Of a stretch of 64,000 bases of DNA, positions 29,195 through 32,070 are shown piece by piece. This DNA is from Candidatus Bathyarchaeota archaeon (GTDB taxonomy: Archaea; Thermoproteota; Bathyarchaeia; Bathyarchaeales; Bathycorpusculaceae). Position 1 is the first letter of the stretch, and every line of letters begins with the position of its first letter. Location: the NCBI GenBank assembly GCA_963780185.1, contig CAWABA010000001.1, positions 224,001-288,000 of the forward strand. Direction: 5' to 3'. The translations under genes were made by a program, and so were the position numbers. A model generated the notes under the pieces. The model worked only from the letters and a program-made list of their open reading frames with translations. It had not been told where the DNA came from and did no database searches.

Positions 29195-29695
29195 TTAGCT
29201 TAATCTGCTGAAGATTTTGCTTCGACGAATAGCCTCTTCTATCGGGAAACCCACAGCGTTTACCGCGATTGCAGACCCTATCAGTATTCCCAATAACCCA
29301 ATTTCCACCGGAACCTGAAATATCACTGCGAGGTATCCTCCAACAATCAAAGAAACCGCTACTGTCTCTGCGACAGTTCCCAGGAACCGCTGGGCTCTGT
29401 TCCCGTTGCGTCCAATATACCATGCCAAAGTACAAGCAACCAGATTTGCTGCTGCACCGCCTACAATATCAATCACGCCTAAGCCGCCATAAACATTAGA
29501 AACTACACATCCCAAACTCAAACCTAAAGCACATGGGAGCCCAAAAATCATCGACAACGGCAACATAGCGTCGGCGACTCTTACTTGCGCCACACCGAAA
29601 CTTATCGGCGCCAAAACGATAACTCCAACTGCATACAAAGCAGCGAAAATAGTGGCAACTGCCAGTTTTTTAGTATTTATCCTCATTTTACTCAA
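29195..29695 (-). CDS. queT: QueT-family queuosine/7-deazaguanine precursor transporter
   Basis: AALYA...LAPISFG..QVRVADA, GC..SN..GGLG..DI..G signature. Confidence 0.85.
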   Translation of the reverse strand: MSKMRINTKKLAVATIFAALYAVGVIVLAPISFGVAQVRVADAMLPLSMIFGLPCALGLSLGCVVSNVYGGLGVIDIVGGAAANLVACTLAWYIGRNGNRAQRFLGTVAETVAVSLIVGGYLAVIFQVPVEIGLLGILIGSAIAVNAVGFPIEEAIRRSKIFSRLS

Positions 29696-29733
29696 TCCGG
29701 GTTTTTTAAGGTAGGTTATATACGGAAACTACC
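29696..29733 (-). ncRNA. Candidate preQ1-I-like riboswitch aptamer
   Basis: GGUAG-UUUCCGUAUAUAAC-CUACC-UUAAAAAA-CCCGGA: 5-bp P1, loop ending in C, A-tract, UCCG/CGGA pseudoknot; fills the queT 5' UTR. Confidence 0.55.
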
Positions 29734-29967
29734 GCTGGGAACGCAACTAACAACCCTGAACTATATTAAATTTCCCCACCAAAACCTCAGCATGGACCAA
29801 TCCAACGACGCCTCGGATGGCGAGTTGTAATTTCAAACGTAATTCAACAGCTACCCTCTATTGAAAAATAACTTCGACCTTGAACCTGAAAATGAGCCTA
29901 ATACTGCGTCAAAACAATTGTTCTGCAGCCCAAACCCTCACAGTTAATAAAAGACGCTAAACTTATA

Positions 29968-32070
29968 GTGAAAACAGGAAGTTCACTTTCTATGCAGCCG
30001 AAACAGGAACCTAAGCCTAACAGGCTCATCAACGAAAAAAGCCCTTACCTTCTCCAGCACGCCTACAACCCAGTGGACTGGTACCCTTGGAGCCAGGAAG
30101 CTTTGGATAAAGCCAAAGCGGAGGACAAACCAATTTTCCTCAGCATAGGCTACTCGACTTGCCACTGGTGCCACGTCATGGAAATGGAGTGCTTCAACGA
30201 CAAGCAAGTTGCGGATTTACTGAACTCAGCGTTTGTATGCATTAAGGTTGACCGGGAAGAAAGACCCGACTTGGACGCTTCGTACATGGCTGTTTGTCAA
30301 GCTATGGGCAGAAACTGCGGCTGGCCCCTCAACATTATAATGACGCCCAAGCTGAACCCGTTCTTTGTCCAAAGCTACATACCTAAACATAGCCGACCCG
30401 GCATAATCGGCATGCTGGATCTTGTGCCCCAAGTCACACAAATATGGAAAACACAGCGTCCCCAAATGGAAATGGTTGGCGCCGACATCAAAGCCCGCAT
30501 AGAAACCATGGAAAAACGAACACCGCAAAATCAACTTAGCGCCGAGGTCCTGCAGGATGGCTTTGACCGACTCAAACTGGATTACGACAAAGAAAACGGC
30601 GGATTCGGCTCAGCACCAAAGTTTCCAACCCCACATAAGATCCTGTTTCTTCTGCGTCTATACTCTCACACGGAGAGAAAAGTGCATTGTCAATTGCTGA
30701 AAATACTCTTCGCAAAATGCGTTTGGGCGGAATCTTTGACCAGCTCGGTTTTGGCTTTCACAGATACAGCACCGACCCAGAATGGCTGATTCCCCACTAC
30801 GAAAAAACCCTTTATGACCAAGCGCTGCTGACGCTGGCGTATGTTGAGGCATATCAGGTGACAGGCGCCCCTAAGTTTAAGATTACTGCAAAGGAAACAT
30901 TGGAATACGTTCTTCGCGACTTGGCTGCAGGTGGGGAAGGCGGGTTTTATTCGGCTCAGGACGCTGACTCGGAGGGTGAAGAAGGAAAATTTTACCTCTG
31001 GACAGTCGATGAAGTTCTCGATGTTCTGGCTCCTGCAGATGCTGAACTGGCAGTTCATCTCTACGGTCTGAAGCCCGAAGGCAACTTCCCTGACGAGATG
31101 GGTCATGCGAACGGCAAAAACATATTGCACATTGCGGAGCCGCTTGAAGACCTTGCAGCATACAAGGGTTTAACAGTCGATGAACTGATTATGCAGATGG
31201 GCAAAATCCAGAACGCCCTTTTTGAGGCAAGAAAAAAACGGATTGCTCCAGCGGTGGATGACAAGGTCTTAGCTGACTGGAACGGCCTGATGATTGCGGC
31301 TTTAGCCAAAGCGGGCAGCGTCTTCGATAATTCAGCGTATATTGAGGCGGCGATAAAGACAGCTGATTTTTGCTGAACCGTATGAGGAAAGGTGATGTGC
31401 TGTATCATCGCTACGCGAAAGGCGAAGTGGCTGTAGAGGGATTTCTGGATGACTACGCCTTCACAGTGTACGGGCTGGTACAGCTGTATGAGGCAACGTT
31501 CAGTGAAGCGTATCTTCAAGCAGCCGCTGACCTGACTAAAAACATGATAAGCAGGTTTTGGGACCAGCGACAACGGCGGATTTTACCAAACACAAAGCGT
31601 GCAGGCGGGCATGCCGAAAATCAAACAGCTCTATGACGGTGCAACTCCTTCGGGCAACTCGGTGGCGCTGCATGACCTACTGTGGCTTAGCCGCTTAACC
31701 AACGAGCCCACGTACGAGCAGATGGCTAAGCAGATGACTGAAATCTTCGCTGAAGAAGTCGAAGGCGCACCCGACGCATACATCTTCTTCCTATCAGCAC
31801 TTGACTTCCAACTCGGCCCATCCTACAGCGTTACAGTAGTCGGTGACTTAGAAGGTAAGGATACGCTGGAGATGCTCAAGACGCTAAGGCGCCTGATACC
31901 TGCCGACCGCCGTAATCCAGCTTAAACGGCCCGACAACGCAGGCTTAGGCTATCGGCAAATCGAAGGAAAAGCAACCGCTTACGTATGCCGCGACCAAAC
32001 ATGCCTACCCCCCACCAACAGCCTCACGGTTATGCTGGAGCAACTGGGCATAAAGGAAGAGAAAGGTTAG
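29968..32070 (+). CDS. Thioredoxin domain/(alpha/alpha)6 protein, YyaL/SPATA20 family; 4 frameshifts (probably sequence errors)
   Basis: [62 protein letters not shown]; shifts near 30672, 31370, 31565, 31896. Confidence 0.88.

Follow-up and report, generated by a model that had tools for sequence, protein, structure and literature searches.

The question that this locus raises is whether the leader of an archaeal queT gene can be a riboswitch of the class I preQ1 type. In the window, i.e., the whole stretch of 64,000 nucleotides (nt) from a Candidatus Bathyarchaeota archaeon that was analysed, the first-pass annotation had placed a preQ1-I-like element in front of such a gene, and the minus strand of positions 29686-29770 reads exactly as that annotation gave it. 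The numbering used here is that of the window and the element is read on the minus strand; it comprises about 40 nt and is referred to as type A, while two other leaders of QueT genes are referred to as types B and C. Type A was found to be specific to QueT and near-invariant across 55 distinct copies, which bears out the proposal of a conserved queT leader. We hold, with moderate confidence, that it is a class-I-like translational OFF switch for preQ0 that would act via a pseudoknot, and we infer the pseudoknot, what it binds and the direction in which it regulates from the sequence comparisons presented below. The parts of the element and of the gene that follows it are these:

29763-29770, minus strand: TATA-like box TTTAATAT, read from the sequence
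29729-29733, minus strand: 5′ strand of the stem P1, GGUAG, complementary to 29710-29714
29729, minus strand: G that would form the closing G-C pair with C29714, the floor of the pocket in class I
29715-29728, minus strand: loop UUUCCGUAUAUAAC of 14 nt between the P1 strands
29727-29728, minus strand: loop segment L1, "UU" atop the P1 5′ strand, invariant in 55 of 55 copies
29723-29726, minus strand: proposed 5′ strand of the helix P2, UCCG, of which CCG is invariant (55/55) and complementary to CGG at 29697-29699, its putative partner
29715-29722, minus strand: loop segment L2, UAUAUAAC, 8 nt, with the terminal AAC invariant and the middle variable (UAU, AAU, CAU, GAU, UUU, AAA or AU among the copies)
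29715, minus strand: C at the place of the class I specificity cytosine, a role suggested by the class I description (PMC11625349)
29710-29714, minus strand: 3′ strand of P1, CUACC, of which CUAC is invariant (55/55)
29702-29709, minus strand: loop segment L3, UUAAAAAA, that is, UU and a tract of six adenines (A6); the A6 is invariant
29700-29701, minus strand: spacer CC, which parts the A-tract from the P2 3′ strand and consists of an invariant C and an optional or variable nucleotide
29696-29699, minus strand: proposed 3′ strand of P2, CGGA, of which CGG is invariant
29691-29698, minus strand: Shine-Dalgarno-like stretch GGAUUGAG, which begins with the GGA of CGGA
between CGGA and AUG, minus strand: UUGAGUAAA, read from the sequence
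29195-29686, minus strand: queT coding sequence, an energy-coupling factor (ECF)-type S component (PF06177, E 4.8e-26), with its ATG at 29686-29684

The distribution and conservation of type A carry most of the argument. Of 61 related genomes, 50 had QueT homologues, and so did 85 of the 401 genomes of the order at E ≤ 1e-25; the upstream DNA of 30 and then of a further 72 QueT loci was inspected. Type A, with hardly a letter changed, preceded the closest QueT orthologues (7/30 of the first and 13/72 of the next loci), and it was present at all six loci of a species-representative collection. A covariance model that was built from 21 distinct copies scored the window site at 71.6 bits, no other site in the 2.75-Mb genome scoring more than 18.7 bits, and QueT was located directly downstream in all 21 distinct genome copies. 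Moreover, metagenomes were scanned with a pattern that fixed only the letters of the loop and the tail and left both P1 strands free, which returned at least 120 loci. Among the matches listed, 42 had GUAG (one GCAG) 5′ and CUAC 3′ of the loop, and 41 of these 42 had a QueT open reading frame (ORF) directly downstream, the remaining one being at a contig end; a QueT ORF followed none of the other 78 pattern matches listed. Together, the genomes of Bathyarchaeia and the metagenomes yielded at least 55 distinct copies, every checkable one directly before QueT, and 55 distinct copies are the basis of all of the conservation figures for type A. Across them, the inner four pairs of P1, the ends of the loop, the A6 tract and CCG/CGG were invariant or nearly so, with GUAG retained in 54 of the 55, while the mean major-allele frequency was 0.48 in the 30 nt upstream and 0.57 at third codon positions, and the QueT proteins behind the copies were 51-89% identical to the queries. 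Since the core is unchanged between scrambled flanks and before diverged proteins, the comparison indicates that the element is under strong selection. The copies are confined to one order of Bathyarchaeia and to one QueT clade.

The context of the element also suits a leader at the very beginning of a transcript. The first-pass annotation had described a TATA box and a start near 29736; the box recurs among relatives, since 40 of 54 distinct upstream regions contain an A/T octamer like it, with its end lying 22-33 nt (most often 27-28 nt) 5′ of P1, and this distance fits a transcript that begins a few nucleotides 5′ of P1, for which the box in the window predicts a start at about 29734-29741. 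The start codon of queT is conserved among the relatives, in which CGG passes directly into GGUGA or GGGGUGA, and this GGUGA-type Shine-Dalgarno sequence is complementary to the 3′ end of the 16S rRNA of the window's genome, GGAUCACCUCCU. The CGG of the proposed P2 thus overlaps the Shine-Dalgarno sequence.

In the 2024 review of the preQ1 family, class I is described as an H-type pseudoknot in which the closing G-C pair of P1 lies under the ligand, L1 starts with U, and a C directly precedes the P1 3′ strand (AC in types II and III, UC in type I), while an A-rich L3 runs along P1 and P2 buries the first nucleotides of the Shine-Dalgarno sequence; a UU motif atop the P1 5′ strand is described there for types I and III (PMC11625349). 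These hallmark nucleotides are the part of the proposed class I layout that stood, since in 55 of 55 copies AAC precedes CUAC, which places C29715 of the window at the specificity position, UUU follows the P1 5′ strand, the closing G-C pair (G29729-C29714) is kept and the A6 tract is present. CCG and CGG are likewise complementary in every one of the 55 copies and never vary. Additionally, type A sits before a 7-deazaguanine gene, queT, which is a classic target of preQ1 riboswitches (PMC5372724, PMC11625349).

However, several observations weigh against class I membership. The A6 tract never adjoins P2 but is always parted from CGG by C, CC, GC or AC. In the solved members of class I, the adenine next to P2 touches the ligand. 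The two additional C residues of the window had been suspected of being an indel error, an option that we discard given that the spacer was CC in 28, C in 26 and GC in one of 55 independent sequences; as judged from these copies, the spacer nucleotides are a real departure from class I and a conserved feature rather than an assembly error. L2 has 8 nt in the window element, the outer pair of P1 was G-C in 48, A-U in one and mismatched in six of the copies, and one copy contains a C·A mismatch inside P1. The covariation of P1 and P2 that had been suggested as a check gave no signal in the 55 copies, with 136 of 500 shuffles reaching the observed score; RNAalifold recovered P1 in the consensus with a covariation term of approximately zero. 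Both helices are thus compatible with the data and unproven. The lowest-energy fold of the single sequence lacked P1 and was no more stable than shuffled sequences (z 0.26); such folding, which pairs bases of the non-conserved 5′ flank, was set aside as being uninformative for a pseudoknot of 35 nt. The other suggested check, the Rfam PreQ1 covariance model (RF00522, gathering score 39 bits), also failed to support the assignment, as neither 301 nt nor a 50-nt slice gave a match at E ≤ 10, a search of the whole genome hit nothing at the type A site, with the best hit elsewhere reaching 16.5 bits, and none of 151 genomes of the order had a hit above the cut-off. Finally, the type A model does not recognise the yhhQ riboswitch of E. 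coli.

The Rfam result has to be read together with a control. The yhhQ leader of E. coli K-12 (L350:9160-9215), which corresponds to a crystallised type III member of class I (PMC10622847), gave no PreQ1 match at E ≤ 10 in an Rfam scan either. Because the model also misses this riboswitch, its silence on type A is weak evidence, and negative Rfam results for divergent class I variants need care, as the power of the search is low. The models for the other two classes, RF01054 (preQ1-II) and RF02680 (preQ1-III), matched none of 16 loci at E ≤ 1 and, at E ≤ 5, none of 15 loci that represented types A, B and C. As a whole, the proposal that type A works and looks like a class I preQ1 aptamer is partly supported by its sequence: the hallmark nucleotides speak for it, and the covariation of P1 and P2, the family model and the adenine that should adjoin P2 do not.

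The gene content of the window's genome, which is 93% complete, bears on the ligand. It encodes arcTGT (282 bits), PTPS/QueD (140 bits) and a QueC-like protein (92 bits), and QueF was not found with Pfam PF14489; since this set points to preQ0, and since class I type II aptamers are reported to bind preQ0 well (PMC11625349), preQ0 is the likely ligand. The mechanism that we propose is that the queT mRNA opens with a small RNA switch that acts in cis; the transcript would start just before P1. P1 (GGUAG/CUACC), with the A6 tract lying along it, would form the platform of an H-type pseudoknot, and the CCG of the loop would pair with the CGG of the tail to form P2. A 7-deazaguanine, most likely the archaeosine precursor preQ0, would be held between P1 and P2, stacked on the G-C pair and paired with the last C of the loop (C29715). 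Its binding would lock P2 and hide the first Gs of the Shine-Dalgarno sequence, so that the translation of the transporter would fall when the precursor is plentiful.

Among the known systems, type A most resembles the type III preQ1-I riboswitch of the E. coli/Shigella yhhQ gene. As described for the latter, both have a 5-bp P1 that is closed by G-C, the UU and AC motifs, a pyrimidine-rich loop strand of P2, a variable linker that is followed by an A-run and a P2 3′ strand that consists of the first Shine-Dalgarno Gs, with P1 and P2 being putative helices in type A, and type III places a 7-deazaguanine importer under translational control (PMC10622847), as we propose for type A. The leader of E. 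coli K-12 yhhQ does read in this order: a 5-bp stem, UU, a pyrimidine run, AC, the stem again, the linker, the A-run and the Shine-Dalgarno GG. In divergent type A copies, the linker before the A6 tract ranges from 2 to 10 nt, which resembles the variable linker and poly-A of type III (PMC10622847). Type A differs from type III in its archaeal host, in preceding an ECF-type QueT rather than YhhQ, in the 14-nt loop with an 8-nt L2, in a P2 of CCG/CGG rather than CCU/AGG, in the addition of one or two nucleotides (C, CC or GC) after the A-run and before P2 and in a P1 that is frozen as GUAG/CUAC. On the evidence of the searches, the two elements are alike in plan and not detectably in sequence. 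The types I and II that are described from Carnobacterium, Thermoanaerobacter and B. subtilis have the H-type pseudoknot that is proposed for type A, and they share the A-rich L3 and the specificity C next to P1 with it; in these, P2 buries no more than the first two Shine-Dalgarno nucleotides, queT is often the gene controlled, and type I has a conserved C in its 3′ tail (PMC11625349). They differ from type A in that type I has UC instead of AC, in the lengths of the loop and the tail, and in that type A has no Rfam match.

Most archaeal QueT genes carry a different leader, type B, and type A is a minority form. The parts of type B are, in order, a GGCGG/CCGCC stem, a conserved GUGAG, a loop with an anti-Shine-Dalgarno sequence, CCCGUU, an A-rich stretch, AAACCCCGG and the Shine-Dalgarno sequence; it is longer than type A and has an invariant AAA-N-CCC(GG) tail. 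It was located directly before 20 of the first 30 QueT loci, at the operon head in two more and before 54 of the next 72, and examples are found at L017:1434-1512 (+), L018:1970-2048 (-) and L064:198-276 (+), with about 150 others. In 74 sequences, P1 and the helix between the anti-Shine-Dalgarno and the Shine-Dalgarno sequences covaried, as none of 500 shuffles reached the score and six pairs changed on both sides. In a wider set of 100 sequences, the closing pair (7-39) was G-C in 85 and C-G in 15, and the outer pair was G-C in 63, A-U in 22, G·U in seven, U-A in two, C-G in one and mismatched in five. Both helices of type B may be regarded as proven by comparative analysis, and the covariation of the second one establishes, on the same comparative grounds, control through the Shine-Dalgarno sequence for this sister leader of type A. 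No partner of the AAA-N-CCC(GG) tail was revealed by covariation in either the 74 or the 100 sequences, the tail being invariant. A subgroup (L181-L185) lacks the GG of the tail, which means that a CCG/CGG pairing is not universal in type B. An alternative helix, CGGGUG/CACCCG, was rejected in favour of P1, since it is broken without compensation in variants with a G>C change.

A divergent type B leader at L103:54-133 (-) deserves mention beside the question of the tail's partner. Six of its changed positions can be matched into three compensatory pairs, and among the changes are CCUCC to CCUCU along with GGGAGG to AGAGG, and CCCG to CCAG in the loop along with CCCGG to CCUGG in the tail. The change in loop and tail would restore a 4-bp helix between the loop and the tail in a slipped register, which is suggestive, and this single case is the only hint at what the tail pairs with.

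Type B extends well beyond the relatives of the window's genome. Its model matched 92 of 151 sampled Bathyarchaeia genomes, mostly once per genome, and 27 of 151 sampled Thermoproteota genomes, including ones outside of the class (9/15 in our family f44, 3/3 in f56 and 2/2 in f60). A QueT-like ORF was located directly downstream of 60 of 65 further matches in the class and of 15 of the 17 matches of the phylum sample that were outside Bathyarchaeia; among the other matches in the class, three preceded a membrane protein and one a weak QueT fragment. At L022:278-2596 (+), a type B leader heads a QueT paralogue, QueC (PF06508, E 5e-62), a second QueT and an HD-domain protein, an arrangement that recurs in L020, and this queT-queC-queT-HD operon ties the type B leader to the synthesis of preQ0. 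There was no Rfam match for the type B leaders. The nearest known counterpart of type B is preQ1-II (RF01054), which is described from the queT leaders of Streptococcaceae/Lactobacillales as a larger pseudoknot before queT, with an anti-Shine-Dalgarno sequence in the loop that, as in type B, pairs with the whole Shine-Dalgarno sequence (PMC11625349). Type B differs from it in having no match to its Rfam model, no U-rich strand for U·A-U triples, no P4 hairpin and other conserved nucleotides (GCG..GU, CCGUU, AAA-N-CCC).

The membrane protein behind the three type B leaders mentioned above is polytopic (L166:1565-2260 (+), L209:108-572 (+) and L206:108-572 (+)); no Pfam family was assigned to it and three QueT queries gave no tblastn match at E ≤ 1e-3. 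It may be another carrier of 7-deazaguanines.

Type C is a leader of about 110 nt with three hairpins that was found before QueT in one genus (six sequences). Its last hairpin masks the Shine-Dalgarno sequence through the pairing of GCCUCC with GGGGGU, with a few compensatory changes in the six sequences, and type C had no Rfam match either. Its loci are these:

L015:1387-1500, plus strand: type C leader
L077:155-268, plus strand: type C leader
L079:65-178, minus strand: type C leader
L082:59-172, minus strand: type C leader
L087:154-267, plus strand: type C leader
L094:154-267, plus strand: type C leader

With the addition of type C, nearly every QueT gene that was examined in Bathyarchaeia and in several other lineages of Thermoproteota has one of three conserved leaders. 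How these are related was addressed with the proteins as well as with the RNAs. A maximum-likelihood tree of 57 QueT proteins, which has a midpoint root only, groups all 12 type A rows in a single clade (100/89); the one type C row is its sister, and the clade is nested among the type B rows. The tree thus gives type A a single origin, within a QueT lineage whose genes already possessed a leader, which type A replaced or remodelled. Among the seven type A genomes that were tested, G030 had a strong type B match before its second QueT gene and G114 a weak one (19 bits, E 0.008). In the window's genome, the only match of the type B model at E ≤ 1 was the type A site itself, where the stems and the A-rich/CCCGG tails of the two coincide in the alignment, with the spacer C or Cs of type A lining up with the invariant CCC of type B. 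Type B is the likely ancestor of type A. It lacks the pocket nucleotides of class I, as the P1 3′ strand is preceded by UU, the 5′ strand is followed by G and the closing pair can be inverted to C-G, which also counts against a class I identity of type A; since type B is without these letters, the class I look of type A would be either a convergent re-invention or a coincidence.

The alternative that survives best follows from this history. It is conceivable, though rather unlikely, that type A is a real leader which senses the same precursor without being class I, i.e., a cut-down descendant of type B in which the A-rich/CCC(GG) tail common to both, together with CCG, serves another pocket and whose class I look is convergent or accidental. 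The placement of the type A QueT clade (100/89) beside its sister type C and amid the type B rows, the stem-for-stem and tail-for-tail alignment, the correspondence of the spacer with the invariant CCC and the missing class I pocket of type B all agree with such a descent. However, all of the class I hallmark nucleotides are invariant in type A, which is much to ascribe to accident, the loop of type A is not derivable from that of type B by simple deletion, and covariation did not find the partner of the type B tail.

That type A is a riboswitch of the proposed shape which responds to another compound that is carried by QueT, such as guanine, another 7-deazapurine, archaeosine base or queuine, seems improbable to us. 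The substrate of the archaeal QueT was assigned by its membership of PF06177 alone, small sequence changes are described as retuning purine-type aptamers (PMC11625349), and the loop and spacer of type A differ from those of all three described class I types. Nevertheless, the C at the specificity position fits a guanine-like face, the sister leader type B controls queC, whose product makes preQ0, and, with QueF not found, preQ0 is the expected free 7-deazaguanine. A leader that binds no metabolite and is recognised by a protein or small RNA, or that serves as a stability or processing element, is similarly hard to credit. The invariance of both "strands" of P1 and of P2 would also be expected of a sequence-specific binding site, and neither covariation nor a thermodynamic signal was detected. 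On the other hand, there is no linked candidate for a regulator gene, the neighbours being a PRC-barrel protein and a DUF255 thioredoxin-like gene on the other strand, type A is always located directly before QueT despite different neighbourhoods and families, and its sister leaders, types B and C, clearly have an RNA structure in which the Shine-Dalgarno sequence is masked. A chance resemblance without function in recently shared sequence, to which the restriction of all copies to one order and one QueT clade might point, is most implausible given that the QueT proteins of the clade have diverged to 51-89% identity and that the adjoining 30 nt are scrambled while the core is invariant.

The preferred reading can be extended to all three leaders, albeit only tentatively and with less confidence than for type A itself: at least three leader RNAs would govern the QueT genes of Thermoproteota, all of them sensing preQ0, with type B as a class of its own, type A as a re-invention of class I that replaced type B once and type C as a third solution. 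The pocket of type B would then be made up of its invariant GU, CCGUU and AAA-N-CCC nucleotides. Being present in about 60% of the sampled Bathyarchaeia and uncatalogued in Rfam, type B is a candidate for a new riboswitch class.

The first-pass annotation had stated that it knew of no demonstration of the class in archaea. The literature was searched, and neither a preQ1 nor a preQ0 riboswitch from archaea was found. Riboswitches are described as rare in archaea, with TPP (thiamine pyrophosphate) and fluoride riboswitches being known and FMN (flavin mononucleotide), Mg2+-I and guanidine-II occurring occasionally (McCown 2017, PMC5473149). The word "archaea" is absent from the main text of the 2024 review of the preQ1 family (PMC11625349), and queT is absent from the main text of Weinberg 2017, whose supplementary motif lists could hold a type-B-like motif. 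The nearest precedent, by analogy, is sRk28 of Thermococcales, a conserved RNA of about 70 nt with a proposed pseudoknot that adjoins a QueC-like gene and that, according to Phok et al., "shares several features with the bacterial preQ1 riboswitch", although ligand binding was never shown in that work (Phok et al. 2011, PMC3124441). Compared by its description only, sRk28 differs from types A and B in being euryarchaeal and in its location next to queC rather than queT.

If the reading of type A is true, the smallest known riboswitch fold would be extended to a second domain of life, probably with a different natural ligand, namely preQ0 for archaeosine rather than preQ1 for queuosine, and the masking of a Shine-Dalgarno sequence by a metabolite-bound pseudoknot would work in archaea. 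If the reading of all three leaders is true, they would be the first metabolite riboswitch family that is native to the archaeal metabolism of tRNA modification. The wider result, an abundant, uncatalogued type B leader and three alternative leaders before one gene family, may matter more than type A itself. It defines short RNAs of about 40 to 110 nt as candidates for a new riboswitch class and offers a natural example in which the regulatory RNA in front of a gene has been exchanged for a different one.

Some minor observations were made during the analyses. A divergent subclade of type A (L053, L070, L074, L225, L276, L303 and L325) has a lengthened P1, GAGGUAG/CUACCUC, as well as a longer linker before the A-tract, and it carries a hairpin 30-50 nt 5′ of P1 whose sequence differs between the copies and yet is self-complementary. 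Weak matches of the type A model were ascribed to chance, both those in the class sample (six in five genomes, 21-26 bits) and the two in its own genome (17-19 bits), since they fall in sequence that is AT-rich or apparently coding and are without the CCG loop. The Rfam matches to PYLIS_6, mir-BART21, rli53, sn2903 and U6atac were at chance level and were set aside. Weak type B matches at L348:61-135 (+) and L349:601-671 (-), at 21-27 bits, were rejected because they precede paralogous, secreted-looking proteins and not QueT; both have a stem, a AAAACCCC tail and a GGAG, and they are probably false positives. In the window, the divergent neighbour of queT is a DUF255/thioredoxin-like gene (PF03190, E 2e-72) at 29968-31636 on the plus strand, which seems to run on in two overlapping frames (30687-31376 and 31370-31636), suggesting frameshifts or assembly indels.

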